From Minisyncoccota bacterium (GTDB lineage Bacteria; Patescibacteriota; Minisyncoccia; Minisyncoccales; JAQTPW01), in contig JAQTPW010000004.1 of the NCBI GenBank assembly GCA_028712565.1, forward strand, positions 838 through 64,837: DNA of 64,000 nt, given 5' to 3'. Both the position numbers and the translations under genes were made by a program. How positions within the stretch are numbered: position 1 is the stretch's first letter; each line of letters opens with the position of its first letter. This document shows positions 2,777-58,798 of this stretch, one piece after another. The notes under the pieces are model-generated. The model did not search any database. It was not told the DNA's origin and worked only from the letters and a program-made list of their open reading frames with translations.

Positions 2777-2812
2777 GAAACCAAAACCCGCCGAGAGGCG
2801 GGTTTTGGTTTC
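2777..2812. terminator. bidirectional rho-independent terminator
   Basis: 16-bp stem GAAACCAAAACCCGCC / GGCGGGTTTTGGTTTC with loop GAGA, between convergent genes. It overlaps the ispH stop codon. Confidence 0.8.
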
Positions 2813-3671
2813 AACTCGGATTCCGAATAATAAGATTCCCCTTTGTTTTAAAATGCCCTTCTAAAAATTTTTTAATTTCTTCAATTTCCCAATCGGGAAC
2901 AGAAGTTCCAGAAACTATCCCCAAAGTAGAGATATTTTTAAAATCAACTTTTTTTAAATCTTTTCCGGAATTTACCAGCCAAACCGATTTTTTATTTTTT
3001 TTGACAATTTCCACCAATCTTTGGGTATTCGCTGACGTAAAAGAGCCTATCACTAAAACGCCTTCAATCTTTTTAATAATTTCAGAAAGTTCCTTTTGGC
3101 GGGAGAGGACTTGGGGGCAGAGAGTGTTTATCCATTCCAATTCTTTTGTTTTATCTTTCAGGATATTTATAATTTTATCAACCCGTTCAATGCTCTGGGT
3201 AGTTTGGCTTATCACTCCGGCTTTCTTTATCTTTTTTAACATTTTCGCCTGAGATTCTTTTTCAATTATTATAGCTTCGCCGTTTACGTATCCTTTTATC
3301 CCCTTTACCTCTGGATGATTTTTTTCTCCAATGATAATAATCTTATATCCTTTTTGAGAAAGAGTTTTCGCCGCCTCCTGGGCTCTTTTAACCAGGGGGC
3401 AAGTAGCGTCTCTTATTAGAATATTTTTTGGAAAAGTTAAGGGAGGAATACCATGGGCTCGAATTACCAGAGTGCCTTTTTTTGCCTCTTTCGGGTTAAA
3501 AATTATTTTTCCTCCTCTTTTTTCAAAATTTTTAATTACCTTTTCGTTATGAATAATTTCTCCTAAAAATTGAATCGGTTTTGGGTCCATTTCCAAAGAA
3601 TGATCAGCAATATCTAAAGTTCTTTTTACTCCGGTGCAGAGGCCGATATTTTTTGCGATTATTATTTTCAT
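2811..3671 (-). CDS. ispH: 4-hydroxy-3-methylbut-2-enyl diphosphate reductase
   Basis: [17 protein letters not shown]..., conserved Cys positions and overall LytB/IspH pattern, 286 aa. Confidence 0.8.
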   Translation of the reverse strand: MKIIIAKNIGLCTGVKRTLDIADHSLEMDPKPIQFLGEIIHNEKVIKNFEKRGGKIIFNPKEAKKGTLVIRAHGIPPLTFPKNILIRDATCPLVKRAQEAAKTLSQKGYKIIIIGEKNHPEVKGIKGYVNGEAIIIEKESQAKMLKKIKKAGVISQTTQSIERVDKIINILKDKTKELEWINTLCPQVLSRQKELSEIIKKIEGVLVIGSFTSANTQRLVEIVKKNKKSVWLVNSGKDLKKVDFKNISTLGIVSGTSVPDWEIEEIKKFLEGHFKTKGNLIIRNPS

Positions 3672-4735
3672 AATTTTTTCGGGTTCCAGACAATTAAATT
3701 ATCTTTTGTTTCAAACTTTCCTTCCAAAAACTTTTCAATTACCCAAATATTAGTTTTGCAATGATTTGTTATTTCAGAAACTAAAACTTGAGATTTACTT
3801 TGCGACAAAGCCATATAAGGCAAAATTTGGTCGGCTAAATTCCTATCAAGGCAAAATCCATCTTTTGCATCATTTAATAATTTCAAAGCCGCTTCTTTGC
3901 CGACATCCTCGGCTTTTTTGCCCAATTTTCCCAAATTGTCAGCGCCAAGAAGCGCGTTTTCGAATTCAGCCATCAAACAAATATTGCTTCCCGGGGATTG
4001 GACAGAATAGTATTCCTGTTTTTCTTCTGTCGGCAACTTTAACCTCCGTAAAATTTCCATAGCTCCTGCAATTTGGCGCTCAGCCACTTTATTATTTTTT
4101 AAAGATTCTGAGGCGCCGGAAATGATCAAAATTTTAATTAATTTGCCTCTTTCAGTTAAATCAATACGTCCTATCTTGGCTGGCTGGATGTTGGTTTTAA
4201 CTCGAGCTCCGCCTTCCGGATAATAGCCTCTTTTTAAAACATCAAGGCCTATTTCTGGCCCAATTTTCACTAAAGTTTTTAAGAAAACATTTTTAAAGTA
4301 ATCTATGGTTGGAGAGAAAAAAGTGTCGGTTGCCCCGCCGTCAAAAGAAATTTCTGTATTTTGAGGCGAAAACAAAGCAGGAGGTATCAATGCTTGCAGC
4401 AGCAAAGTAATGCTTGCCGCAGTATCAATTTTTATCTCAAAATTTTTTGCCAAAATTTCATCCGGATAAAAAAATATCTCTGTTGAGCCCAAATTATCTC
4501 CTTCTAGTTTTCCATTGCAAAGCTGGGATATTGTCTGAACCCCAAGAAGATGTTGGAGTGCCAAACCCGGCTTTTCCCTGCCCGCTCTTATATTAAAAAC
4601 ACGGCAGGGTTTTCTTGTGACTGCCGAAAGAGATAAGGCGGTTCTTAGAATTTGGCCGCCTCCTTCGCCAAAAGACCCGTCGACTTCGATTAAGGGCTGA
4701 TTTGCCATAGAATTGACTTTAGCAGATTCTAGCAT
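3668..4735 (-). CDS. rtcA: RNA 3'-terminal phosphate cyclase
   Basis: [19 protein letters not shown] signature and a length of 355 aa. The stop overlaps the ispH start by 4 nt. Confidence 0.8.
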
Positions 4736-8177: not shown

Positions 8178-9902
8178 ATGATAAATCAGGAGATCGCAAA
8201 AATATTTTATGAGATTGCCGATTTTTTAGAAATGGATGGAATCCAATTTAAACCTTATGCTTACCAAAAGGCGGCGATCACTTTGGAAACCCTAGAAGAA
8301 GATATAGAAAAAATTTATAAACAAGGAGGAAGAAAGGCCCTACTTGAAATTCCTGGCATTGGAGAGAGCATGGCTGATAAAATAGAAGAATATTTAAAGT
8401 CGGGCAGAATAAAATATTACGATTCTTTAAAAAAGAGAACCCCGATTAATATGGAAGAATTAATTCAAGTAGAGGGTTTGGGTCCCAAAAGAGCAAAAGT
8501 TTTATATCAAAAATTAGGAGTGGCTAATTTAAAAGATCTAGAAAAAGCAGCAATTTCCCACAAAATTTCTCCTTTGTTTGGATTTGGTGAAAAAACAGAA
8601 AAAAATATTTTAGAAGGCATTGAATTTTTAAAAAGGTCAAAGGGGAGATTTTTATTGGGAGATATTTTGCCAAGAGTAAAAGAAATTTTGGAGAAATTAA
8701 AAAATTTCAAAGAAGTGGAAGAAATTTCTGTTGCCGGCTCTGTGAGAAGAATGAAAGAAACAATAGGAGATGTTGATATTTTGGTTATTTCAAAAAATCC
8801 AGCAAAGGTTATGGATTTTTTTGTTTCTCAGCCAGGGGTTGTGAAAATCTGGGGAAAGGGATCTACAAAATCATCAATAAGGCTAAAAGACGGGCTCGAT
8901 ATGGATTTACGAGTTTTGCCAAAAAGGTCTTACGGCGCGGCTTTGCAGTATTTCACGGGTTCTAAAGACCATAATATTGCTTTGAGAAAAATCGCAATTG
9001 ATAAGGGTTTAAAACTTTCAGAGTATGGATTATTTCGAGGCTCAAAAATAATTGCCGGCAAAACTGAAGAAGAAATTTATAAAGCTCTTGGTATGGTTTG
9101 GATGGCGCCGGAATTAAGAGAAAATCAGGGAGAAATTGAAGCCTCTATAAAAAACGAGCTCCCTAAAATTGTAGGTTATAAAGACGTAAGAGGAGATTTG
9201 CATTCCCATTCAAATTGGGATGGAGGGACAAATACTTTAGAAGAAATGGCAAAATACGCGATTAATATGGGATACGAGTATTTAGGAATTTCCGATCATA
9301 CAAAATTTTTACGAATTGAGCACGGTTTGGATGAGAAAAAATTAGATCAAAGAAATAAAAAAATAGACGAGCTAAATTCTAAATCCTCTATTCTAAATTC
9401 TAATTTCCGCCTCTTAAAGGGCGCGGAAACCAATATTTTAAACGACGGTTCAATTGATATCCGGGACGAGTCGCTGAAAAAATTGGATTATGTAATAGCC
9501 GGCATTCACTCTAATTTTAAAATGCCAAGGGAAAAAATGACGCAAAGAATGATAAATGCGATGAAAAATAAAAATGTTGATATAATCTCCCATCCGACAG
9601 GTAGAATCTTAAAAAAAAGAGATGAATATGAAATAGATTTCGATAAAATTTTAAGGGTGGCAAAGGAGACCGGAACAATTTTGGAAATAAATGCTTCGCC
9701 TTGGAGATTGGATTTGGATGACCAAAATATTCGTCGGGCAAAAGAAGCCGGAGTCAAAATGGTAATTAATACGGACTCTCACCATAGAGACCAGTTAAGA
9801 TTTATGGAATTAGGCATTGCCCAAGCAAGACGCGGCTGGGCAGAAAAAGGAGATATTATCAATTGCTGGCCTTTAGAAAAAATGTTAAAATTTTTAAAAT
9901 AA
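8178..9902 (+). CDS. polX: family X DNA polymerase with C-terminal PHP domain (PolX)
   Basis: HhH motifs (IPGIGESMADKI, VEGLGPKRAKVLY), the GSVRRMKETIGDVDIL catalytic motif, and PHP DLHSHSNWDGG...ISDHT...NTDSH. Confidence 0.85.
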   Translation: MINQEIAKIFYEIADFLEMDGIQFKPYAYQKAAITLETLEEDIEKIYKQGGRKALLEIPGIGESMADKIEEYLKSGRIKYYDSLKKRTPINMEELIQVEGLGPKRAKVLYQKLGVANLKDLEKAAISHKISPLFGFGEKTEKNILEGIEFLKRSKGRFLLGDILPRVKEILEKLKNFKEVEEISVAGSVRRMKETIGDVDILVISKNPAKVMDFFVSQPGVVKIWGKGSTKSSIRLKDGLDMDLRVLPKRSYGAALQYFTGSKDHNIALRKIAIDKGLKLSEYGLFRGSKIIAGKTEEEIYKALGMVWMAPELRENQGEIEASIKNELPKIVGYKDVRGDLHSHSNWDGGTNTLEEMAKYAINMGYEYLGISDHTKFLRIEHGLDEKKLDQRNKKIDELNSKSSILNSNFRLLKGAETNILNDGSIDIRDESLKKLDYVIAGIHSNFKMPREKMTQRMINAMKNKNVDIISHPTGRILKKRDEYEIDFDKILRVAKETGTILEINASPWRLDLDDQNIRRAKEAGVKMVINTDSHHRDQLRFMELGIAQARRGWAEKGDIINCWPLEKMLKFLK

Positions 9903-10652: not shown

Positions 10653-10849
10653 AACAAGAATGGAAGCAGTGTGAAACGTGTGGTTTAGTTACTGATTTAG
10701 ATGAAATACGTTGTCCAAGCGGGAACTTAGTGCATCATTTAAGAAATGTCCAGCTTGCTGAAGAAGAAATAGCAAAGTTTTTCGGTGAGAGAATGGTTTA
10801 CACTAAGCATGCCGCGAACTTGCAAATAATAACAAAAGTCCACTCATAG
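10637..10849 (+). CDS. hypothetical small protein with a CxxC motif
   Basis: AAAGGAGAG SD before the GTG at 10637; CETCG...CPSG. The stop codon lies inside the first terminator-repeat hairpin. Confidence 0.4.
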   Translation: MANKLKQEWKQCETCGLVTDLDEIRCPSGNLVHHLRNVQLAEEEIAKFFGERMVYTKHAANLQIITKVHS

Positions 10850-10946
10850 GTGGACTTTTATATTTTTATTCAAAAGTCCACTCATAGGTGGACTTTTATA
10901 TTTTTATTCAAAAGTCCACTCATAGGTGGACTTTTATATTTTTATT
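10833..10946. repeat. three perfect tandem copies of a 38-bp unit, each a terminator hairpin
   Basis: Units at 10833-10870, 10871-10908 and 10909-10946. Each has stem AAAAGTCCAC / GTGGACTTTT, loop TCATAG, then ATATTTTTATT. The array lies between convergent genes. Confidence 0.9.
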
Positions 10947-12092: not shown

Positions 12093-12108
12093 TTATTAAA
12101 AATTTTAG

Positions 12109-12459
12109 TGGAGGTGTGGGGACTTGGACCCCAATCCAGAAATTTTGCCAAAATATTTCTACAAATGTATCCTGTTTATTTAAGATGCCGGATTTGAAAC
12201 AGGAAAAATTTCAGCATCTTTTGCCTCTGTTTTTTGATAGTTTCCCGAGGCAAAAAACTATCTATCTCGATGTGTGACACCTGATGACGCCTATCGAGAA
12301 TCAACGGTCAGATGGTTTACGCGATTAGGCGCAAACAGTAGCAAGTTTTGGACTTGCGAATAAGTTAGCACTTATTCTAGTTGCTGGAAGTTTAATGAGA
12401 TTCTAGCAAACTCAATTTGCGTATTTTGGTAAAAGTTTCCGTCGAATCCTTGCACCCCC
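12109..12459 (-). ncRNA. ssrA: tmRNA (SsrA), one-piece, about 351 nt
   Basis: 5' GGGGGUGCAAGGAUUCGACGG. 3' T-arm GGGGUCCAAGUCCCC followed by CACCUCCA, which pairs with the 5' end and includes a G3:U pair. Candidate tag frame GCT AAC...GCC TAA at 12369-12325 gives (A)NLFASPKLATVCA*. Lies next to smpB. Confidence 0.85.
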
Positions 12460-12472: not shown

Positions 12473-12515
12473 AGTGAGGTCGCGGCGCTAAATTCTATAT
12501 TCTAAATTCTAAATC

Positions 12516-12965
12516 CTAAAAATGTTTCAGCTCTCTTTGCATTTCTCTTTCTGTTTCGCGGTTTTTTATGCTTTCTCTTTTATCAAACTCTCTTTTTCCT
12601 TTTGCCAATCCGAATTCTATCTTTATTTTACCTTTTTTAGTATATACCCTCAATGGTACCATCGTCAAGCCTTTCTGTCGCGACTTGCCCAATAAGTATT
12701 CAATCTCCCGTTTTTTTAAAAGAAGTTTCCGGGACCTGTCTGATCTGTAATCTGCAGGCATATTTTTTGGCTGATAGGGGGGAACATTAGCTCCGATTAA
12801 AAAAACTTCGCTATTTTTATCAATCACAACATAAGATCCGGCCAAACTAATCCGCCCGTCTTTTATTGATTTTACTTCCTGCCCAATCAAAGAAATCCCT
12901 GCTTCAAACTTTTCCAGGATTTCATAGTTAAAATATGCTTTTTTGTTGTCAGCAAGTATCTCCAT
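12516..12965 (-). CDS. smpB: SsrA-binding protein SmpB
   Basis: NKKAYFNYEILEKFEAGISLIGQEVKSIK...RSRKLLLKKREI, the canonical SmpB pattern. Confidence 0.9.
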   Translation of the reverse strand: MEILADNKKAYFNYEILEKFEAGISLIGQEVKSIKDGRISLAGSYVVIDKNSEVFLIGANVPPYQPKNMPADYRSDRSRKLLLKKREIEYLLGKSRQKGLTMVPLRVYTKKGKIKIEFGLAKGKREFDKRESIKNRETEREMQRELKHF

Positions 12966-13065: not shown

Positions 13066-14610
13066 ATGGCTCGAAAAGATATAAAAAAACTAATTGAAAA
13101 AGCAGTAAAAGAACTCTACAAAATAGATGCCGAGGTTAAAATTGACCGGCCGCAGGATTTGGCCTTTGGTGATTATTCCACAAATGTGGCAATGACGATA
13201 AAGAAAAATCCGCAGGAAATCGCCAACGCCATAAAATCAGGTTTGTTGGAAAAAATTGAGGTAAAAAATGGCTTCGTCAATTTTTTTCTCTCAAAAGAAT
13301 ATTTGCAAAATCAGGTTAGAGAAATTTTAAAACAAAAAGAATCCTTTGGCGAAATAGAAACCGGAAAGGGGAAAAAAATAAATGATGAATTTATTTCGGC
13401 AAACCCAACCGGGCCTTTAACTTTGGGAAATGGCAGGGGAGGGTTCTGCGGAGATGTCTTGGCAAATATTTTAGAAAAAGCATCTTTTAAAGTCGTTCGA
13501 GAATACTACATTAACGATACGGGTGAACAAATCAGAAAGCTTGGCCATTCGGTTTTGGGAGATGAAGAAGCAGTTTATAAAGGGGCTTACATTGAAGAAC
13601 TAAGAAAAAAAATCAAAATAGATAATCCCGAAAAAGCTGGCGAAAAAGCCGCAAAGATTATTCTGGAAGAAATGATAAAGCCCGCTATTAAAAAAATAGG
13701 GATAAAATTTGATGTCTGGTTTTCAGAAAAAAGCCTTCATGAGAAAAAGCAAATTGAAAAGGCGCTGGAATTTTTAAAAGCTAAAAGCTTATCTTACGAA
13801 AAAGAAGGAGCCCTCTGGTTTAAAACAACTAATTTTGGTGACGATAAGGACAGAGTTTTAATAAAGGCAGATGGCGAGACGACTTATTTGGCTTCAGATG
13901 TTGCTTATTTAAAAAACAAATTTGAAAGAGGGTTCGAGAAACTAATATTTTTTTGGGGAGCAGACCATTATGGCTATATTGCAAGAATAAAAGCTGCGAC
14001 AGAAGCTTTGGGTTATAAAAAAGAACAAATAGATATTATAATTGAACAATTAGTTAGACTCATCGAAAACGGAAAAGAAGTAAAAATGTCAAAAAGGTCT
14101 GGAATTTATGTTACGATAGATGAGTTAATTGGTGAGGTAGGGTTAGATGCGGCAAGATTTTTCTTTTTGACGCGAGGAGCAGATAGCCATTTGAATTTTG
14201 ATTTGAATTTAGCAAAAGAAAAAACAGAGAAAAATCCAGTTTATTATGTGCAATACGCTCATGCAAGAATATGCAGTATTATTAAAAAATCAAAAATCAA
14301 AAATCAAAAATTAAAAAGCGAATACGAAGATTTAAAATTGTTGAATCACGCGTCGGAGCTTAACTTAATTAAACAATTGATTAGGTTGCCGGAGATTGTT
14401 GAAGATACGGCAGAGGATTACCAAATTCAAAGGTTGCCGCAATATTCTATTGATTTGGCGACCGCTTTCCATGTTTTTTATCGGGATTGCCGCGTTATTA
14501 ATGAGGACGGAAATTCAAATAACCAAAGAATAGCTTTGCTATTGGCAACAAAAACAGTTTTAGAAAATACCCTAAAATTAATGGGGATTTCCGCGCCGGA
14601 AAAAATGTAA
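13066..14610 (+). CDS. argS: arginine--tRNA ligase
   Basis: SANPTGPLTLGNGRGG (HIGH region), ADHYGYIARIKA, and the C-terminal anticodon-binding pattern VYYVQYAHARICSI. Confidence 0.9.
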   Translation: MARKDIKKLIEKAVKELYKIDAEVKIDRPQDLAFGDYSTNVAMTIKKNPQEIANAIKSGLLEKIEVKNGFVNFFLSKEYLQNQVREILKQKESFGEIETGKGKKINDEFISANPTGPLTLGNGRGGFCGDVLANILEKASFKVVREYYINDTGEQIRKLGHSVLGDEEAVYKGAYIEELRKKIKIDNPEKAGEKAAKIILEEMIKPAIKKIGIKFDVWFSEKSLHEKKQIEKALEFLKAKSLSYEKEGALWFKTTNFGDDKDRVLIKADGETTYLASDVAYLKNKFERGFEKLIFFWGADHYGYIARIKAATEALGYKKEQIDIIIEQLVRLIENGKEVKMSKRSGIYVTIDELIGEVGLDAARFFFLTRGADSHLNFDLNLAKEKTEKNPVYYVQYAHARICSIIKKSKIKNQKLKSEYEDLKLLNHASELNLIKQLIRLPEIVEDTAEDYQIQRLPQYSIDLATAFHVFYRDCRVINEDGNSNNQRIALLLATKTVLENTLKLMGISAPEKM

Positions 14611-14636: not shown

Positions 14637-14658
14637 GGGGGCACAACCCCCTTTTTTT
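14637..14658 (+). terminator. rho-independent terminator
   Basis: GGGGG-CACAA-CCCCC followed by TTTTTTT, just after the argS stop. Confidence 0.7.
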
Positions 14659-14710
14659 ATTTGGAAAATGGCGAATATTAACATTTCAGATATTTTATAT
14701 TCAATCTTGT

Positions 14711-14853
14711 AGGGTGATAATAAATACAGGGTTGATAATAAATACAGGGTTGATAATAAATACAGGGTTGATAATAAATACAGGGTTGATAATAAATACA
14801 GGGTTGATAATAAATACAGGGTTGATAATAAATACAGGGTTGATAATAAATAC
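14711..14853. repeat. 18-bp tandem repeat: one degenerate plus seven perfect copies of AGGGTTGATAATAAATAC
   Basis: Perfect units start at 14728, 14746, 14764, 14782, 14800, 14818 and 14836. They are contiguous with no spacers. Confidence 0.95.
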
Positions 14854-14902
14854 TATATATACTAAATATACCAAACCCCATTTTGTGTGATAAATAATAC
14901 CA

Positions 14903-14911
14903 TGGTATAAT
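14903..14911 (+). promoter_or_regulatory. extended -10 element TGGTATAAT
   Basis: Perfect TGnTATAAT about 29 nt upstream of the ATG at 14940. A near-identical context (ATGGTATAA-ATTACAATAA) recurs at 15579. Confidence 0.45.
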
Positions 14912-14939
14912 TATTACAATAAATAATATATTTAATTTG

Positions 14940-15524
14940 ATGAGTTTTATGAAAAAAATTACGAAAATAAAAAATAAATATTACTCTAAAGAAATCCTAA
15001 AGTATTTATTATTAAGCGGCATGATTTTTATTGCGGCATCTTCTCCATATTTTATTCTTAGACTAATGAGGAATACCTCAAAGTTTAAACAATCGCCCAA
15101 GAGAAAATTTTTAGATGCATTTAGTTATTTAAGAAATAAAGGTTTTATTGAAATTGAAAGGCGTGGTCACGATATAAAAATTTCCCTAACAGACGAAGGG
15201 AAAAAGAGGGCGGGGAAATATCAAATAGATGATTTAGAAATTGATATTCCAAAGAGATGGGATAAAAAATGGAGAATTATTATTTTTGATATTCCCGACA
15301 GTCAAAGAATTAAAAGAAATGTTTTTAGGGGCAAGATAAAAGAATTTGGTTTCTTCCCTCTCCAGAAGAGCGTTTGGGTATATCCCTACAAATGCGACAG
15401 AGAGGTTGGGTTAATAAGAGATTTTTTGGGGGTTACAAAAAAAGATATACAGGTGATTACTGCGGAAAAAATTGATAGTGAGGATCGACTTAAAGAATTT
15501 TTTAAAATAAAACTTAATATATAA
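14940..15524 (+). CDS. membrane-anchored wHTH protein with a PaaX-like / Cas2-like C-terminal domain
   Basis: N-terminal TM helix (LLLSGMIFIAASSPYFIL). wHTH-like LDAFSYLRNKGFIEIERRGHDIKISLTDEGKKRA. WDKKWRIIIFDIPDSQRIKRNVFRGKIKEFGFFPLQKSVWVYP matches the PaaX / Cas2 beta1-alpha1 pattern. Confidence 0.5.
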   Translation: MSFMKKITKIKNKYYSKEILKYLLLSGMIFIAASSPYFILRLMRNTSKFKQSPKRKFLDAFSYLRNKGFIEIERRGHDIKISLTDEGKKRAGKYQIDDLEIDIPKRWDKKWRIIIFDIPDSQRIKRNVFRGKIKEFGFFPLQKSVWVYPYKCDREVGLIRDFLGVTKKDIQVITAEKIDSEDRLKEFFKIKLNI

Positions 15525-15578
15525 CTCCTGCTTTTTAAAAGTATGACTAAATTGTAAATCGTTGTAAAAATAATGCGA

Positions 15579-15587
15579 TGGTATAAA
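15579..15587 (+). promoter_or_regulatory. extended -10-like element TGGTATAAA upstream of ileS
   Basis: About 90 nt upstream of the ileS ATG. Same sequence context as the promoter at 14903. Confidence 0.3.
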
Positions 15588-15677
15588 AATTACAATAATT
15601 ATATGTTGCTAAAGGCGATGCGATCATTCGTCTTTCAGGTTGATTTTAAGAGTTAAAAGTGATATTTTAAATAATAT

Positions 15678-18600
15678 ATGGAGATAAATTTTGTAAAAAA
15701 CGAGGAAAAAATATTGAAATTTTGGAGAGAAAACAAAATTTTTGAAAAGAGCATAGAAAAAAGAAAAAATGCCAAAAAATTTGTTTTCTTTGAGGGCCCC
15801 CCAACTGCGAATGGCAAACCCGGAATTCACCATGTTTTAAGCAGGGTTTTTAAAGATATTATTTGCAGATACAAAACAATGCAGGGTTTTAGAGTGGAAA
15901 GGAAAGCCGGTTGGGATACCCATGGACTTCCAGTTGAGTTGGAAATTGAAAAAAAACTTGGACTAAAAAATAAAAAAGATATTGAGGATTACGGAATCGC
16001 ACGTTTTAACAAAAAATGCAAAGAATCTGTCTGGGAATATCTGCAGGATTGGGAAAAATTAACCGAAAGAATTGGCTTTTGGCTGGATCTAAAAAACCCC
16101 TATATTACCTACGAAACAGATTATATTGAGACTGTTTGGTTTATTTTAAAAGAAATTTATAAAAAAGGTTTATTATCTCAAGATTACAAAGTTGTTCCTT
16201 ATTGCCCGCGATGCGGAACGACTCTTTCCAGCCACGAAGTTGCTCAGGGATACAAAAAAGTAAAAGGGCCATCAATATATATTAAATTTCAAATTTTAAA
16301 TCCAGAATTTAAAGATTCTTATTTGTTGGTTTGGACGACGACTCCCTGGACGCTTCCCGGGAATGTAGCAGTTGCCATAAACCCGGCCTATACCTATATA
16401 AAGGTAAAATTTAATAATGAGAATTTAATTTTGGTAAAAGATAGAATGGAAGCCTGCGGATTAAAAGATGCAGAAATTTTAAAAGAATTTAAAGGAAAAG
16501 ATTTGTTGGATTTGTATTATCAGGCTCCTTATCCGATAGATTCAAAGAAAGAAATGACAACTTATAGGGTTTTGCCCGCAGAATTTGTTTCCTTAGAAGA
16601 TGGTTCAGGTATGGTTCATATAGCTCCTGCTTTTGGCTTGGATGATATGGAATTAATAAAAAAAGAAAATGTAAAACTAAGAAAAGAAAAAGAGCCTGAA
16701 TTCCCAATTTTGCTGACAGTAAACGAAGAAGGAAAATTTAAATTTGAGGTAAAAAAATGGGCAGGAATGTTTGTAAAAGATGCAGATCCCTTGATAATTG
16801 CTGACTTAAGAGAGAGGAGCCTGCTTTATAAAGAAGAATTATATGAACACGATTATCCTTTCTGTTGGAGGTGCAAATCTCCTTTATTGTATTACGCAAA
16901 ACAGAGCTGGTTTATAAATATGCAGGCGAAAAAGCAGGATTTAATAAAAAATAACCAAAAAATAAATTGGGTGCCTGGCCATTTGAAAGAAGGAAGGTTT
17001 GGCGAATGGTTAAAAGAAGTAAAAGACTGGGCAATATCTAGAGAAAGATATTGGGGGACGCCTTTGCCGATTTGGAAATGCAAAACCTGTAATGCTTTGG
17101 AGGTTTTGGGGTCAAAAACAGATTTGGTATCCCAAAAATTCAGCAAAAATAGCTATTTTGTAATAAGGCATGGCGAATCCTATAAAAATAAAAAAGACGT
17201 TCTTTCTTGCTGGCCGGAAAAAACCCCTTTTAATTTAACTGAAAAAGGGAAGGTGCAAATTGCCACGGTTGCTAAAAAATTAAAAAACAAAAAAATTGAT
17301 TTAATATTTTCTTCTGACATTTTAAGGACAAAGCAAACCGCCGAGATTATCGCCAAAGATCTTAATTTGAAGGTGAAGTTAGACAAGAGGTTAAGAGAAA
17401 TTAATATTGGTATTTTAAATGGTAAAAAACAAAAAGATGCTTTTGATTTTTGGGGAAAATCCACCCTTTCTCCAATTGAATATACGCAAAAAAGATTCCA
17501 AGTAACTCCTCCTGAGGGAGAAAATTATGCGGATGTTGAAAAGAGGATGTTGAGTTTTATGAAAGAAATGGAAAATAAATACCAAGGGAAAAATATTTTA
17601 TTAGTCAGTCACCAACGTCCAATAACTCTACTAGAAAAAGTAATGGAGGGCTTCGATATTAAAAAATTTGCTGATATTCTAGTTAAGGATAAAGAGATAA
17701 AATTGGGAGAAATCAGAGAATTTGATTTTGCAAATCTTCCTTACGATGAAAAAATGGAATTTGATTTCCATAGGCCCTATATAGACGAAGTGAAATTTTA
17801 TTGTAAAAAATGCGGGGCCCAAATGGAAAGAGTTCCCGAAGTTCTTGACTGCTGGTTTGATTCAGGTTCTATGCCTTTTGCCCAGAATCATTGGCCCTTT
17901 GTGAAAAATCTCCGCCCAAGGCGGACCAGCCTCGGGCTGGAAAACTTAAGACCACCAGAATTGTTTCCAGCAGATTATATTTGTGAAGCAATTGATCAGA
18001 CAAGAGGATGGTTTTATACTTTGCTGGCAGTTTCCACCTTGTTGGATTTCGAGTCGCCTTATAAAAATGTAATTTCCGTAGGCCATGTTTTGGATGAAAA
18101 AGGAGAGAAAATGTCAAAATCAAAAGGCAATATAGTTGATCCTTGGTATATTATCGGGAAATATGGCATAGATGCAGCAAGATGGTATTTCTATACAATA
18201 AATCAGCCCGGAGAACCAAAACTTTTTTCAGAAAAAGATATTGATGGCGCCTTGAAAAAATTTATTTTGACATTTTGGAACTGCTACATATTTCTGAAAA
18301 CTTACGGAGAAAAAATCAGCCCAAAGGTGAATTTAAAAACAAAAAATGTTTTAGATAGATGGATTATTTCAAGACAAAATCAGCTGATTTTTGACGTAAC
18401 AAATGCTTTGGAAAAATACGATGTGACGGGGGCTAGCCGACTGATTGAAAAATTTGTCGTTGATGACCTCTCTCTTTGGTATGTAAGAAGATCTCGAAGG
18501 AGATTCCAAAGGCCAGAGACAAAAAACGAAGCAAAGATCGCTTCTGAAGTTTTGGGCCAAGTTATTTTTACTATAACTAAATTAATGGCGCCATTTTTGC

Positions 18601-19223
18601 CATTTTTGAGTGAAGAAATTTATCAAGAAACTTTAAATTTAGAAAGTGCTAATAATTCAGTACATTTTCAAGATTGGCCAAAGGCGAATAAAAAAATGCT
18701 TGATAAAAAAATAATGGAAGAGATGGAAGGGGTAAGGGAAATCGTAGCTCAGGCTTTGGCAGAGAGGGCAAGGGTCGGGATTAAAGTGAGACAGCCGCTG
18801 AGGCGATTAAAAATTTCCGCCCTGGGCGGATCCGCCTCGGGCGGAAAAAATAAGGAATTATTGGGTTTGATTCGCGACGAGGTTAACGTAAAAGAAGTAG
18901 TTTTTGATTCTAAAATTAAAACCAAAGTGGAGTTAGATACTGAAATTACACCGGAGTTAAAAGAAGAAGGGACAGTCAGAGAAATTATTCGCAACATCCA
19001 AGAATTGAGGAAAAAGGCGAATTTCAAGCCGAGTGATAGCATTTCAGTGAGATATTCCGGGAGTCCGGATTTAGAGGAGATTTTAAGCAAAAACGAAAAA
19101 ATTATTTTAAAAGAGGGAAAAATCAAGGATCTCCAGAAAAAAACACAAGACGAAAAATTTAACATCGAAGAAGAAATAACGGTCGATCAGCAAAAAATAA
19201 TAATATCAATCAAAAAAATTTAA
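15678..19223 (+). CDS. ileS: isoleucine--tRNA ligase carrying a nested histidine-phosphatase domain
   Basis: PPTANGKPGIHH (15822-15833), WTTTPWTLPGN, editing-domain blocks, KMSKS at 18108-18122, DQTRGWFY. At 1181 aa it is about 200 aa longer than expected because of the insert at 17.15-17.75 kb. Confidence 0.9.
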   Translation: MEINFVKNEEKILKFWRENKIFEKSIEKRKNAKKFVFFEGPPTANGKPGIHHVLSRVFKDIICRYKTMQGFRVERKAGWDTHGLPVELEIEKKLGLKNKKDIEDYGIARFNKKCKESVWEYLQDWEKLTERIGFWLDLKNPYITYETDYIETVWFILKEIYKKGLLSQDYKVVPYCPRCGTTLSSHEVAQGYKKVKGPSIYIKFQILNPEFKDSYLLVWTTTPWTLPGNVAVAINPAYTYIKVKFNNENLILVKDRMEACGLKDAEILKEFKGKDLLDLYYQAPYPIDSKKEMTTYRVLPAEFVSLEDGSGMVHIAPAFGLDDMELIKKENVKLRKEKEPEFPILLTVNEEGKFKFEVKKWAGMFVKDADPLIIADLRERSLLYKEELYEHDYPFCWRCKSPLLYYAKQSWFINMQAKKQDLIKNNQKINWVPGHLKEGRFGEWLKEVKDWAISRERYWGTPLPIWKCKTCNALEVLGSKTDLVSQKFSKNSYFVIRHGESYKNKKDVLSCWPEKTPFNLTEKGKVQIATVAKKLKNKKIDLIFSSDILRTKQTAEIIAKDLNLKVKLDKRLREINIGILNGKKQKDAFDFWGKSTLSPIEYTQKRFQVTPPEGENYADVEKRMLSFMKEMENKYQGKNILLVSHQRPITLLEKVMEGFDIKKFADILVKDKEIKLGEIREFDFANLPYDEKMEFDFHRPYIDEVKFYCKKCGAQMERVPEVLDCWFDSGSMPFAQNHWPFVKNLRPRRTSLGLENLRPPELFPADYICEAIDQTRGWFYTLLAVSTLLDFESPYKNVISVGHVLDEKGEKMSKSKGNIVDPWYIIGKYGIDAARWYFYTINQPGEPKLFSEKDIDGALKKFILTFWNCYIFLKTYGEKISPKVNLKTKNVLDRWIISRQNQLIFDVTNALEKYDVTGASRLIEKFVVDDLSLWYVRRSRRRFQRPETKNEAKIASEVLGQVIFTITKLMAPFLPFLSEEIYQETLNLESANNSVHFQDWPKANKKMLDKKIMEEMEGVREIVAQALAERARVGIKVRQPLRRLKISALGGSASGGKNKELLGLIRDEVNVKEVVFDSKIKTKVELDTEITPELKEEGTVREIIRNIQELRKKANFKPSDSISVRYSGSPDLEEILSKNEKIILKEGKIKDLQKKTQDEKFNIEEEITVDQQKIIISIKKI
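17151..17700 (+). other. histidine phosphatase superfamily (PGAM-like) domain embedded in-frame in ileS
   Basis: RHGES 17166-17180, SSDILRTKQTAE, REINIG, LLVSHQ (His codon 17610-17612). Flanked by the IleRS blocks PIWKCKTC... and FHRPYID... Confidence 0.7.
17912..17940 (+). repeat. GC-rich twin-hairpin element, in-frame in ileS
   Basis: CCGCC-CAA-GGCGG at 17912-17924 and CCAGCC-TCG-GGCTGG at 17926-17940. Encodes RPRRTSLGL in an otherwise AT-rich gene. Confidence 0.8.
18816..18845 (+). repeat. GC-rich twin-hairpin element (30 nt), in-frame in ileS
   Basis: TCCGCC-CTG-GGCGGA followed by TCCGCC-TCG-GGCGGA. Encodes SALGGSASGG. Confidence 0.85.
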
Positions 19224-37014: not shown

Positions 37015-38664
37015 ATGGAGGAGATTTTTTCGAAAAATTCAGGGAAGGCAATTTTATTGGGAAACGAAGCTATTGTTCGAGGCGCCTTGGAATCGGGCGT
37101 CAATTTTGTTTCTACTTACCCTGGAACCCCGGCTTCGGAAATCGGGAATATTTTTTATAAAATTTCAAAAGAAGCTGGCGTTTATTTTGAATTTTCTACA
37201 AACGAAAAGGTGGCTTTGGAAGCTTCAATTGGAGCCAGCTTTTCGGGTTTAAAAACACTGGTAGCTATGAAAAATTTTGGTTTGAATGTTTGCCTGGACG
37301 CTTTGTTTCCGTTTGTTTATACGGGCTCTAAAGGCCCTACGGTAATCATTGTTGCCGATGATCCTTCCTGCCACAGTTCTGCCCAGTCAGAAGAAAACAG
37401 CCGGGGAATTTTGCTCGCAACTCATATTCCGGTTTTAGAGCCGTCAGATCCTCAGGAATGCAAGGATTTTGTAAAATTAGGATACCAGATTTCAGAAAGA
37501 TTCAAAACTCCCGTGGTAATAAGAACTACGACAAGAGTGGCTCATCAGAAAGCGCCAGTAAAACTGAATGAAATCCCAAATAACAAATCCCAAATTACAA
37601 AAGGTGAGTTTGTGAGAAATAAGCATCAGTTTGTTACTTTGCCGCCTAGAGTTTTTGAAATGAAGGCAGAATTATTGGAAAAAATCGAGAGAATAAAGGA
37701 ATTTTCTGAAAAATCGATTATTAATAAAATTTCAGGCAATGGAAAAATTGGAATCATAACCTCAGGAGTTTCTTATTTAAATGTAATGGATGCGCAGGAA
37801 GAACTTGGGGTTAATCTCTCGGTTTTTAAACTCGGATTTTTTAATCCCTTGCCCGAAGAAAAAATTAAAGCGTTTTTAAGGCCTTTAAAAAAAGTTTTAG
37901 TTGTTGAAGAGTTAGAGCCATTTTTAGAGGACGAAATTAAAAGATTGGCAAAAGAAGTAAACTGCAAGCTGGAAATTTTCGGAAAAGGATTAATCCCAGA
38001 AATTGGCGAAACAAAACCAGAAGATGTGATCTTTGCTCTGGCAAAAGTGCTAAATCCTAAATCCCAAATCCCAAATCCTAAACAAATTCAAAATACAAAA
38101 ACCAAAATACAAACTACGGGACGCCTTCCCCAGCTCTGTCCCGGTTGCCCTTACTGGATGGTAATTTCTGCAATCAAAAAGGCCGTTAACGAAAACGAGG
38201 TGATATTTGGCGGGGAAATCGGATGCTATATGCTTTTTGGAAACGCACCGGTAAATTTGCAAGATTATTTATTTTGCATGGGGTCTTCAATGGGAATTGC
38301 CCACGGAATTAAAAAAGCTACCAAAGGCCAACAAAAGCTTATTACTTTTATCGGCGATTCTTCATTTTTCCATTCGGGAATTCCGCCTTTGATAAACACA
38401 GTTTTTAATAAATCGAATCCTTTAGTTATTATTTTAAATAATGAAACAACAGCCATGACCGGGCACCAGCCGCATCCAGTTTCTGCTGGAATGGAAAACA
38501 ATATAAACATTGAAAATATTGTCAGGGCTTGCGGAGTAAAATATGTAAAAACGATTGACCAGGCAAATCAGGAAGAATTTACCAATACGGTAAAAGATTT
38601 TTTGGAAAAAGATACGGTTTCTGTAATAATTGCAAAACATCCGTGCAAATTCGTTAAGAAGTAA
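37015..38664 (+). CDS. iorA: indolepyruvate:ferredoxin oxidoreductase alpha subunit-like (no C-terminal ferredoxin domain seen)
   Basis: LLGNEAIVRGALESGVNFVSTYPGTPASEI, CPGCPY, GDSSFFHSG TPP-binding motif. Confidence 0.75.
   Translation: MEEIFSKNSGKAILLGNEAIVRGALESGVNFVSTYPGTPASEIGNIFYKISKEAGVYFEFSTNEKVALEASIGASFSGLKTLVAMKNFGLNVCLDALFPFVYTGSKGPTVIIVADDPSCHSSAQSEENSRGILLATHIPVLEPSDPQECKDFVKLGYQISERFKTPVVIRTTTRVAHQKAPVKLNEIPNNKSQITKGEFVRNKHQFVTLPPRVFEMKAELLEKIERIKEFSEKSIINKISGNGKIGIITSGVSYLNVMDAQEELGVNLSVFKLGFFNPLPEEKIKAFLRPLKKVLVVEELEPFLEDEIKRLAKEVNCKLEIFGKGLIPEIGETKPEDVIFALAKVLNPKSQIPNPKQIQNTKTKIQTTGRLPQLCPGCPYWMVISAIKKAVNENEVIFGGEIGCYMLFGNAPVNLQDYLFCMGSSMGIAHGIKKATKGQQKLITFIGDSSFFHSGIPPLINTVFNKSNPLVIILNNETTAMTGHQPHPVSAGMENNINIENIVRACGVKYVKTIDQANQEEFTNTVKDFLEKDTVSVIIAKHPCKFVKK
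38049..38113 (+). repeat. AT-rich AAATCC(C/T)-type module in-frame in iorA
   Basis: GCTAAATCCTAAATCCCAAATCCCAAATCCTAAACAAATTCAAAATAC... encodes NPKSQIPNPKQIQNTKTKIQ. The 18-mer at 38059-38076 is identical to the reverse complement of 63768-63785 in mfd. Confidence 0.85.
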
Positions 38665-56503: not shown

Positions 56504-56599
56504 TTGTTCACCTCCAAAATAGCAATAGCATAAAATATCCAGCTTGTCAAATATAAATGCAAACAAAAAAGAAACCTTATAAGGTTTCTTTTTAAACGG

Positions 56600-56682
56600 T
56601 GGGCGGGGAGGGAGTCGAACCCTCATGAGATTGCTCTCATGGCATTTTGAGTGCCACGTGTCTGCCATTCCACCACTCGCCC
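56600..56682 (-). tRNA. tRNA-Leu (anticodon CAA)
   Basis: Cloverleaf by eye: acceptor GGGCGAG/CCCGCCC (one A:C mismatch), anticodon arm TGGCA-CTCAAAA-TGCCA, long variable arm TGAGA-GCAA-TCTCA, T-arm GAGGG-TTCGACT-CCCTC. Confidence 0.8.
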
Positions 56683-56725: not shown

Positions 56726-58798
56726 CTACCCGGCACAGTCTTTTTTTGAACATTTAATCTGTTTTCTTTTTGTTTCAACCATAGGCGAGCCGCATTTTTC
56801 GCATAATTTTCCTGTCGGCTTATCCCACGCGGCAAAATCGCATTTTGGCCAATTTGTGCAGCCGTAAAATATTTTTTTTCTTTTAGTCCTTTTTGCTACA
56901 ATTTCGCCATTTTTACATTTGGGGCATTTCATTCCCAGCTTATTCTCTTTTAAGGATTCGGTATATCTGCACTTTGGAAATTTTGAACAGGCATAAAATT
57001 TTCCAAATTTCCCCAAGCGGATTAAAAGCGAAGAGCCGCATTTGGGGCATTTTTTTTCAGTCGGCTTTTCGGTAAATTCCTTCTTTGAAACTTCCTTATA
57101 TTTTTCTTCCAGATTTTTTTCAAAAGGGGTGTAAAATTCTCTGATCATCGGAACCCATTCATTTGAATCTTGGGCGATTTCATCTAATTTTTTTTCCATT
57201 TCAGCGGTAAATTTAATATCAACGATTTCCGGAAAGTTCTTAACTAACAAATCGTTTACTATAATCCCGATTTCAGTAGGCTTGAATCTTCTATTTTCAT
57301 CTTTTTCTATATAATTTCTATCTTGTATGGTTGATAAAATCGGAGCGTAAGTTGACGGCCTGCCGATTCCGTTTTCTTCAAGCGCGCGGATCAAACTTGC
57401 TTCATTATATCTTGGAGCTGGTTCGGTAAAATGCTGGGAGGAAATTAATTTTATTAATTCTAAAATTTCATCTTTTTCCAAAGAAGGCAATTCATTCTCC
57501 TCGAATTTAATCGGATAAATCTTCAAAAATCCATCAAATTTTAAAATTTGTCCCGTCGCCCGAAAAGCATATTTGTAATTTGTAATTTGTAATTTGGGAT
57601 TTCCAGCTTTGATATCTATTGCGGTAGAATCAAAAATTGCCTGGTTCATCTGGCTGGCAATAAATCTGTTCCAGATCAAGCTATAAAGCTTGAATTGGTT
57701 ATTGTCGAGCTCTGCAGTTTTTAAATTTTCAGGATTTCTGTCGGCATAGGTTGGCCTGATTGCTTCGTGCGCTTCCTGGGCGCCTTTTGATTTTGTTTTA
57801 TATCTTCTCAAATATCCTGCCCAATAATTTTCTCCATAATTTTCGATAATAAATTTTTTTGCGGCGAATAAAGACAAGTCGGAAAGATTAAGAGAATCCG
57901 TTCTATGGTAGGTGATGAAACCTCTTTCGTATAATTTTTGGGCAATCTGCATTGTAAATCTTGCGGGAAAATGAAATTTTTGCCAGGCGCTTTGCTGCAA
58001 AGTGGAAGTTGTAAAGGGCGGCAGGGGATTCCTTTTTTCCTCTTTTTTATCAACATTTACTACTTTATATTCGGCACCATCTAAATCTTTTATAATTTTA
58101 TCCGCCTCTTTTTTGTTTTTAATTTCCAGTTTTTCAAGCGTTTTATCATTTATCCTAATTAAGGTTGCGTCAAATTCGTTATTTTTGATTTTTGATTTTT
58201 GAGTTTTGAGTTTCGCAATTATCTGCCAATATTCCTGCGGCACAAATTTTTCTCTTTCTCTTTCCCTTTCCACCACCAATCTTACGGCAACTGATTGGAC
58301 TCTTCCTGCGGACAAACCCCGGGCGATTTTTTTCCATAAAAAAGGAGATAATTTATATCCGACAAGCCGATCTAAAATCCTTCTTGCCTGCTGGGAGTCA
58401 ACTAAATTTATATCAATTTGCCTCGGGTTTTTTAACGCTTCTTCAATGGCGGGCTTGGTAATTTCGTGGAAAACAATTCTTTCATAGGGTTCTTTGTCGC
58501 CGCCGAGCTTTAGCGCCTGCACCAGATGCCAAGCTATTGCTTCTCCTTCCCGGTCTTCATCGGTTGCTATAATCGCGGAGTCGGTTTCTTTTACGGCATC
58601 GGAAAGAAATTTTACAGTTTTTCTGGCTTTGGTCGGAATTATATATCTTGGCTCAAAATTTTTTTCAACATCAATTCCCAATTCGCTTTTTGGCAAATCT
58701 CTGACGTGGCCATAAGAAGCCAAGACCTTATATCCAGGCCCTAAAAATTTTTGTATTGTATTTGCCTTAGCCGGGCTTTCAACTATGATTAGTTGCAT
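56726..58798 (-). CDS. topA: DNA topoisomerase I
   Basis: Toprim start LIIVESPAKA, ATDEDREGEAIAWH, YITYHRTDS active-site Tyr, and C-terminal CPKCG zinc ribbons. Confidence 0.9.
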   Translation of the reverse strand: MQLIIVESPAKANTIQKFLGPGYKVLASYGHVRDLPKSELGIDVEKNFEPRYIIPTKARKTVKFLSDAVKETDSAIIATDEDREGEAIAWHLVQALKLGGDKEPYERIVFHEITKPAIEEALKNPRQIDINLVDSQQARRILDRLVGYKLSPFLWKKIARGLSAGRVQSVAVRLVVEREREREKFVPQEYWQIIAKLKTQKSKIKNNEFDATLIRINDKTLEKLEIKNKKEADKIIKDLDGAEYKVVNVDKKEEKRNPLPPFTTSTLQQSAWQKFHFPARFTMQIAQKLYERGFITYHRTDSLNLSDLSLFAAKKFIIENYGENYWAGYLRRYKTKSKGAQEAHEAIRPTYADRNPENLKTAELDNNQFKLYSLIWNRFIASQMNQAIFDSTAIDIKAGNPKLQITNYKYAFRATGQILKFDGFLKIYPIKFEENELPSLEKDEILELIKLISSQHFTEPAPRYNEASLIRALEENGIGRPSTYAPILSTIQDRNYIEKDENRRFKPTEIGIIVNDLLVKNFPEIVDIKFTAEMEKKLDEIAQDSNEWVPMIREFYTPFEKNLEEKYKEVSKKEFTEKPTEKKCPKCGSSLLIRLGKFGKFYACSKFPKCRYTESLKENKLGMKCPKCKNGEIVAKRTKRKKIFYGCTNWPKCDFAAWDKPTGKLCEKCGSPMVETKRKQIKCSKKDCAG

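Follow-up and report, generated by a model that had tools for sequence, protein, structure and literature searches.

Paired palindromes bracket the genes of a small PaaX-like protein family in Patescibacteria, and an 18-bp tandem array beside one such gene is specific to its genome

We analyzed a 64-kb stretch of contig JAQTPW010000004.1 from a Minisyncoccota bacterium (the window, i.e. all 64,000 nucleotides, whose first letter is position 1), in which the gene for a small protein, here called mini-PaaX, lies between argS and ileS and is preceded by an array of 18-bp direct repeats. A first-pass annotation made from the sequence had read the array as an iteron or operator array for the adjacent DNA-binding protein. 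Comparison with homologous loci did not bear out a conserved array of this kind, as it is absent in relatives; the conserved cis-element of the family is instead a pair of palindromes that flank the gene and are specific to each paralog. We favor, with somewhat better than even confidence, a reading in which mini-PaaX is a self-repressing homodimer acting on these paired bracketing palindromes (PAL-L upstream and PAL-R downstream), with the array outside the conserved design. The features concerned, in window coordinates, are as follows.

14711..14853, strand not applicable: 18-bp tandem array in which a 17-nt copy precedes 7 perfect copies of AGGGTTGATAATAAATAC.
14887..14917, strand not applicable: PAL-L, imperfect palindrome GTGATAAATAATACCATGGTATAATTATTAC, probable operator, with its centre CCATGG at 14900-14905.
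14949..15524, plus strand: mini-PaaX gene, 191 aa, from the open reading frame (ORF) table; alternative starts at 14940 and 14937.
14970..15230, plus strand: probable winged-helix DNA-binding domain, residues 8-94, predicted from AlphaFold2, Foldseek and hhalign; it includes the hydrophobic segment.
15252..15485, plus strand: Cas2-like (PaaX_M) ferredoxin-fold domain, PF20803, the presumed dimerisation domain.
15563..15593, strand not applicable: PAL-R, second palindrome copy TGTAAAAATAATGCGATGGTATAAAAATTAC, which contains TGGTATAAA.

About 45 loci were compared, 37 of them from species-representative genomes and eight on further contigs, among them four close homologues and a paralog from the same metagenome-assembled genome (MAG) as the window; individual loci are given L numbers below. 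When the 300 bp upstream of each gene was inspected, a 24-40 bp palindrome was seen directly 5' of nearly every family start codon (e.g. GTATTACAAATTGCGTATATACGCAATTTGTAATAC in L012 and GCTTAATAATATTGCTATAGCAATATTATTAAGC in L030). The best palindrome within 150 bp upstream had a median score of 11.5 for 37 family genes as against 6.5 for 155 control genes from the same loci (Mann-Whitney p 2e-10), and several of the top-scoring controls were the gene just downstream of a family gene, which shares that gene's palindrome. A systematic scan found both copies of the palindrome bracketing the gene in 32 of 35 loci. In most loci the upstream copy lies 1-70 bp before the start codon and the downstream copy 1-50 bp past the stop codon, often at 3-8 bp and in a few cases at up to about 100 bp. 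Downstream copies are seen ahead of co-directional genes, convergent genes and tRNAs alike.

The palindromes are also specific to their gene. The two copies at one locus have a mean identity of 0.82, compared with 0.57 between loci; in 28 of 36 non-redundant loci the upstream palindrome is matched best by the region downstream of the same gene; and paralogs encoded by one genome differ in the outer arms of their palindromes (L018, L019, L023 and L034). Conservation between the two copies stops at the palindromes, the DNA directly outside them being at 0.39 identity (null 0.32). This indicates that the palindrome itself is what is maintained, and the unconserved flanks also led us to reject a recent segmental duplication as the source of PAL-L and PAL-R. 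The upstream copy coincides with core promoter elements at conserved spacing: in the close subgroup the palindrome centre supplies the TG of an extended -10, and in the distant subgroup a centre of TTGCTA or TTGCAT lies 16-17 nt before TATAAT. Intrinsic termination was rejected as a general role for the downstream copy because a T-run follows a minority of downstream copies only. Third or fourth copies are found up to 2 kb away at L015, L016, L019, L024, L026, L036, L040 and L042, which hints at small local regulons.

In the window, PAL-L overlaps a -35-like TTGTGT (14883-14888, 17 nt 5' of the -10) and the extended -10 TGGTATAAT (14903-14911). PAL-R lies 39 bp past the stop codon of the mini-PaaX gene and 85 bp before the start of ileS. 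The two were linked by a repeat search, which returned a 34-nt direct repeat that is 85% identical to 14892-14925, and the degenerate motif AAATAATRCSATGGTATAAWWATTAC, which covers both, occurs exactly twice in the 64 kb where 0 occurrences are expected.

The protein had been described as 194 aa long. An ORF of this length does run from the ATG at 14940, but the next ATG, 14949, is the start in homologues and in the NCBI entry (hypothetical protein PHF44_02260, 191 aa), giving 191 aa. Pfam PF20803 (PaaX_M, 'PaaX central Cas2-like domain') matched residues 105-182 of the 194-aa form with E 1.1e-19 and 70.8 bits against a cutoff of 24. The PaaX/Cas2-like C-terminal domain that had been proposed is thus present, but as the central dimerisation domain of PaaX and not its effector domain: no Pfam match to the PaaX_C effector domain was found, and the protein ends about 10 residues past the Cas2-like domain. 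The PaaX equivalog model TIGR02277 scored 32.2 bits against a cutoff of 264.55, and there are no paa genes nearby, the neighbors being argS and ileS. The Cas2 models gave weak, sub-cutoff matches (E 1e-4 to 0.01) spanning just the first 35-45 residues of the PaaX_M region, with 16.3 bits against 23.8 for PF09827 (Cas2) and 22.5 against 24.5 for TIGR01573. The best PADLOC match to Cas2 had E 2.8e-5 over 43 residues; weak Cas2 matches were all that PADLOC gave, and membership of a defence system was rejected. The Cas2 signature residues D114, Q139, S141 and W143 are invariant in 143 family members, and the Rhodococcus PaaX homologue has Tyr at the D114 position.

The winged-helix-like segment of the first-pass annotation is favored by predicted topology, by Foldseek and by hhalign. 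AlphaFold2, run on a diverse alignment of 143 sequences, gave a mean predicted local distance difference test score (pLDDT) of 76, and of about 90 in the Cas2-like b-a-b-b-a-b domain. The predicted topology is H8-22, E27-30, H35-42, H51-63, E67-72, E75-80 and H82-94, i.e. residues 8-94 are modelled as a1-b1-a2-a3-b2-b3-a4, a canonical winged helix. The top PDB match by Foldseek was E. coli PaaX (8a39, E 9e-7, 184 aligned columns), followed by Rv0674, by the PaaX-like protein of Jannaschia (3l09), and then by small winged-helix proteins (AF1382, F-93 and AspA) and Cas2. Alignment by hhalign with an annotated Rhodococcus PaaX-family regulator (probability 94.9%, E 4.8e-8) started at residue 57 and covered the recognition helix, the wing and the Cas2-like core. 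The Pfam winged helix-turn-helix model DUF6293_C matched with E 1.2e-5, just under its cutoff. A sequence search of the PDB returned no PaaX. The assignment of mini-PaaX as a DNA-binding protein with a winged helix and a PaaX/Cas2-like domain is supported by these results.

An N-terminal transmembrane (TM) helix had also been proposed, and this membrane anchor found no support. The hydrophobic stretch concerned, YLLLSGMIFIAASSPYFIL, has a Kyte-Doolittle 19-residue mean of 1.73 (family median 1.60) and positive charges on both flanks. In the deep-alignment model it forms the last part of helix 1 together with strand 1 and helix 2 of the winged helix, and it is probably part of this domain rather than a TM helix. 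The PDB sequence search paired the segment with the signal peptide of OXA beta-lactamases at chance level (E 0.05), and a secreted DNA-binding protein was judged unlikely given the strongly positive flank after the segment.

In Patescibacteria, 623 proteins of about 187 aa are closely related to mini-PaaX. A profile search of a representative library gave 5249 clusters (50% identity) at E<=1e-3; nearly all of the best 150 of these contain proteins of about 180-200 aa, and the named sources are almost all Patescibacteria. Annotation pipelines label the members hypothetical, PaaX or Cas2, and a literature search found no paper that describes the family, in keeping with the earlier failure to match the gene and its array to a described system. 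Several genomes have 2-4 paralogs, and paralogs within a genome are 45-55% identical. The MAG from which the window derives encodes a second paralog with the same palindrome design on another contig; none was found inside the 64-kb window. That paralog was recovered from sequencing run SRR22315508, which probably also contains the genome of the window. At L022 two paralogs form a tandem pair (774-1352 and 3155-3737) on the same strand, about 1.8 kb apart, and each has a palindrome of its own. Within subgroups synteny is retained, as argS-X or recG-tRNA-X (X being the family gene). No family relatives were found in viral contigs and phage genomes, and a plasmid search returned distant actinobacterial PaaX regulators only.

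The array lies in the interval between argS and the mini-PaaX promoter, and the genes and signals that border the locus are the following.

13066-14610: argS, the upstream neighbor.
14637..14660, plus strand: intrinsic-terminator-like hairpin GGGGGCACAACCCCC (14637-14651) and T-run, which end argS (terminator scan).
15678..19223, plus strand: ileS, the downstream gene (Pfam tRNA-synt_1, E 2e-120); it is preceded by PAL-R and is a candidate co-regulated target.

The terminator after argS places the array in an untranscribed spacer that extends to the next promoter. Tandem Repeats Finder reported a repeat at 14711-14853 with period 18, 8.0 copies, 99% matches and a score of 279. Direct reading of the sequence and a repeat search resolved this into 7 perfect units of AGGGTTGATAATAAATAC (14728-14853) after a first, 17-nt copy, AGGGTGATAATAAATAC (14711-14727), which has one T fewer. 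The description of seven perfect and one degenerate copies ending 50 bp upstream of the extended -10 was therefore accurate, as was the conclusion that the array is not a CRISPR, since its units run head-to-tail with a period of 18 bp and without spacers. Allowing up to 3 mismatches, the 18-mer occurs 9 times in the window where 0.14 occurrences are expected, and one of these, with 3 mismatches, is outside the array. When array units were examined as sigma-70 promoters in a promoter scan none qualified, and no Rfam family was found at the array or the palindromes.

The array is missing from all 45 homologous loci examined, including those with the same argS-X synteny (L002, L004, L028 and L042/43); in the orthologous spacer of L042/L043 an extra distal palindrome takes its place. 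The array junction and the right flank of the array each had 0 matches in a metagenome contig collection, and neither a second assembly nor a copy-number variant of the locus was found, the exact protein not being in the gene-position index. The perfect identity of the copies indicates that the array expanded recently. A second perfect tandem in the contig, 3.0 copies of the 38-bp unit CAAAAGTCCACTCATAGGTGGACTTTTATATTTTTATT at 10833-10946, indicates that this genome produces recent intergenic tandem duplications. The 38-bp unit consists of a terminator-like hairpin and a T-run, i.e. a terminator has been tripled between two genes.

The relation of the array to the palindrome depends on how it is measured. 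In gapped local alignment, two array units scored 15 against the whole of PAL-L, compared with 6.6-7.7 for the null, which corresponds to p 0.0007-0.0015 with shuffled palindromes and 0.0035-0.007 with shuffled units, and puts the array in the top 0.5% of intergenic 36-mers. Palindromes of the same subgroup (L007, L005, L010 and L011) also scored high against the array, and those of distant subgroups did not. A plain half-site of PAL-L was rejected as the identity of the array unit: the best ungapped match was 11/14, which 4.5-17% of intergenic windows equal. The suggested relation of array to operator is therefore present in the gapped comparison and not significant in the ungapped one. Tandem repeats were found upstream of 7/32 family genes as against 8/106 other intergenic regions, no more than a weak enrichment (p 0.045, a count that includes the window), and no homologue has this array. 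The other arrays include a degenerate one of 17 bp x about 10 at L016, one of 12 bp x 6 at L040, and those at L035, L008 and L017; they were rejected as operator-derived because none of them resembles the palindromes of its own locus (p 0.29-1.0). On the minus strand within the mini-PaaX gene, at 15002-15015, the repeat core has an inverted near-copy, TTAATAATAAATAC (13/14), which combines with the final array unit and the adjoining flank into a 16/18 inverted repeat around the promoter. This near-copy is probably due to chance, as the window contains 4 matches with up to 2 mismatches against 2.1 expected and the site encodes a conserved KYLLL motif.

In the mechanism that we propose, mini-PaaX would consist of a winged helix and a Cas2-like dimerisation module, without an effector-binding C-terminal domain and probably without a membrane anchor. 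A homodimer formed via the Cas2-like domain would bind the long paralog-specific palindrome, which is available in two copies. Binding to PAL-L would cover the -35 and the extended -10, occlude RNA polymerase and turn off the gene's own transcription, as PaaX does at Px. PAL-R would most likely bring ileS under the control of the same repressor, act jointly with PAL-L through a DNA loop, or do both. The conserved palindrome design would not include the array, which lies 33 bp upstream of PAL-L; our preferred reading is that operator-like DNA in a change-prone spacer was recently amplified in tandem in this genome alone. The array may bind the repressor weakly or titrate it, an accessory role at most and no conserved one.

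Several observations weigh against parts of this mechanism. PAL-L is a weak palindrome, with 9/10 inner pairs and imperfect outer arms, and PAL-R is identical to it at just 23/31 positions. Recognition of the palindrome by the protein is suggested by their co-occurrence and co-variation in sequence, both of which also track phylogeny. At the N-terminus, model confidence is modest (pLDDT 54-69 in the hydrophobic part), the hydropathy of the stretch reaches the TM threshold, residues 1-57 came out unstructured, with unpacked helices, in a first AlphaFold2 run that used 38 close homologues, and no Pfam PaaX N-terminal match was obtained at E<=1. The invariance of D114, the Cas2 Asp, means that the Cas2-like domain may do more than dimerise. 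With regard to the array, its similarity to the palindrome is gap-dependent and was found after several tests had been tried, and the slight enrichment of tandem repeats upstream of family genes is not what a purely neutral view of the array would predict.

The best surviving alternative, which we nevertheless regard as improbable, gives the array a functional role of the iteron or operator type, with monomers on the direct repeats and dimers on the inverted repeat at the promoter providing titration or cooperative control. Rep/iteron replicons are laid out as direct repeats, an inverted repeat over the promoter and a winged-helix gene, and the window has the same layout. The resemblance of the array to PAL-L in gapped alignment would fit such a system, as would a 12/14 match between the first degenerate unit, GTGATAATAAATAC, and the left arm of PAL-L, a repeat period of 18 bp that is roughly the arm-to-arm offset within PAL-L, and the tandem repeats that lie upstream of some relatives (L016, L040, L035 and L008). 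However, no homologue has kept the array, even where argS-X synteny is retained, the arrays at other loci do not resemble their own palindromes, and the perfect identity of the copies suits recent slippage more than maintained sites. Furthermore, 18 bp does not correspond to an integral number of helical turns, Pfam gave no homology to Rep families, and the surroundings are housekeeping genes without plasmid or phage relatives. A replication origin at the locus was rejected, as no switch in GC skew was found.

The array, or its copy number, might instead be an artefact of short-read metagenome assembly, which we think unlikely. The perfectly periodic run of 139 bp (14715-14853) is about as long as typical reads and k-mers, which means that the assembled copy number may not be the true one, and no second assembly of the locus was found for comparison. 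However, assemblers usually collapse or break repeats and do not create them, both flanks of the array are unique, and a 17-nt variant as the first copy is as expected at the border of a real array. The second perfect tandem in the contig also suggests that such repeats are a genuine property of this genome.

Less probable again is that palindrome, gene and palindrome form a selfish or DNA-rearranging cassette, in which a Cas2-fold nuclease acts at the palindromes in excision, inversion or duplication, and the array is a by-product at the left border. The four invariant Cas2 residues, together with the Tyr at the Asp site of the PaaX homologue, speak for this idea, and the repeats on either side of the gene, at 24-40 bp, are similar in size to CRISPR repeats and independent of the neighboring genes; small genomes contain several paralogs, the L022 genes are in tandem, and extra palindrome copies lie near some loci. 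Against it, the paralogs are old and their palindromes diverged, which does not fit an active mobile element, synteny is kept within subgroups, relatives are lacking among the viral, phage and plasmid collections, and neither target-site duplications nor conserved flanks were found. The position of the palindrome over the core promoter at conserved spacing is that of an operator. A broader form of the same idea, to which we give marginally less credence still, holds that such self-bracketing cassettes are Patescibacteria-wide, that their Cas2-fold protein, beyond repression, is enzymatic on the paired palindromes (by cleavage, recombination or repeat duplication), and that the array is the footprint of repeated border duplication, a spacer-less counterpart of the action of Cas1-Cas2 at a CRISPR leader.

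Expression of the array, as a leftward transcript from an extended -10-like element TGGTATTAT on the minus strand, 12 nt before the ATG at 14881, or as a repeat peptide, (IYYQPC)7, is barely credible: five of the six frames through the array unit are open, but open frames are mechanical in an 18-nt (3 x 6) repeat, nothing is conserved in relatives or matched in Rfam, the perfect DNA identity gives no sign of coding constraint, and a divergent promoter is not general, as what lies upstream at other loci is a co-directional gene or a tRNA that has a promoter of its own. The minus-strand ORF in question runs from 14881 to 14678 and is 67 aa long, and the TGGTATTAT before it lies in the left arm of PAL-L.

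Among known systems, the preferred self-repressing homodimer is closest to PaaX, which represses the phenylacetate catabolon. PaaX combines a winged helix-turn-helix, a dimerisation motif and an effector domain, binds the operator TGATTC-N27-GAATCA, and represses its own gene by steric hindrance (PMC9493321). Mini-PaaX resembles PaaX (E. coli W 8a39; 3l09; Rv0674 3kfw) in having a predicted N-terminal winged helix followed by a Cas2-like central domain and, as far as its sequence indicates, in a long palindromic putative operator with distal arms over its own promoter. It differs in being about 40% shorter (191 aa), in lacking PaaX_C and any obvious sensing of phenylacetyl-CoA, in keeping the Cas2-type Asp, in its restriction to Patescibacteria with several paralogs per genome, and in having two bracketing copies of the probable operator.

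With Cas2 and VapD-like proteins mini-PaaX shares the b-a-b-b-a-b fold and the signature 'hhhhYDI...R...L...G...Q.SV', and S. pyogenes Cas2 was matched by Foldseek, but the protein falls under every Cas2 cutoff and is fused to a winged helix. The 64-kb window contains no repeat-spacer array, its only direct-repeat families being the 18-bp and 38-bp head-to-tail tandems. The immediate neighbors of the gene are aminoacyl-tRNA synthetase genes and not cas1, for which the other ORFs were not profile-scanned.

In theta plasmids such as those with pPS10 RepA, R6K pi or P1 RepA, direct repeats of 17-22 bp are related to the arms of an inverted repeat. The locus is like these Rep-iteron systems in the order of direct repeats, promoter inverted repeat and winged-helix gene, a likeness of layout only; it differs in the absence of Rep homology and of detectable origin features, in its chromosomal housekeeping context, and in perfect copies that are absent from relatives. 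A small gene between two family-specific palindromes, with different palindromes for different paralogs, is also found with REP-associated tyrosine transposases (RAYT) and repetitive extragenic palindromes (REP). Mini-PaaX, however, is not an HUH/Y1 transposase, and its palindromes are not dispersed (two in 64 kb) and coincide with promoter elements.

Few regulators can be recognised in the tiny genomes of Patescibacteria, and hardly any of these bacteria can be grown in culture. Each member of the family can be paired with a readable, paralog-specific palindrome, which provides a testable protein-DNA recognition code, and the palindromes allow local regulons, here possibly including ileS, to be predicted where genetics is unavailable. 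The analysis also corrects the view of the family as CRISPR-related and, probably, as membrane-anchored, and shows that the Cas2 label is wrong. The family-wide pairing of palindromes around the gene is the result of note and the array itself matters less; as a very recent amplification beside a probable palindromic operator, it could serve as a strain marker or modulate repression to a modest degree.

The contig comes from a low-GC (about 35%) MAG of the Patescibacteria ('Pacebacteria') and carries infC, tmRNA, smpB, argS and ileS. The isoleucyl-tRNA synthetase encoded by ileS (15678-19223) is 1181 aa long and contains a histidine-phosphatase insert (His_Phos_1, E 6e-36) at residues 494-669. 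At L003 the mini-PaaX gene is directly followed by a free-standing gene (2808-3398) that encodes up to about 196 aa and an RHGE motif, and at L002 an apparently equivalent RHGE gene (3663-4097), nearly identical to it in the start region, also follows mini-PaaX; these two genes are apparently of the same kind as the His_Phos_1 insert. The tmRNA gene (12106-12459, minus strand; Rfam 123.5 bits) adjoins smpB and encodes the tag ASPKLATVCA, and the single tRNA in the 64 kb is a tRNA-Leu at 56598-56682. Runs of 4-8 copies of heptanucleotides of the CTAAATC, CTAAATT or AAAAATC type occur in both orientations at 9372-9407, 12488-12520, 14285-14317, 38050-38117, 57571-57602, 58181-58213 and 63738-63791, mostly within ORFs despite a unit length that is not divisible by 3. 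Two other genomes also have the argS run, in what is apparently the corresponding part of the gene (L002 2532-2582 and L004 2240-2291).

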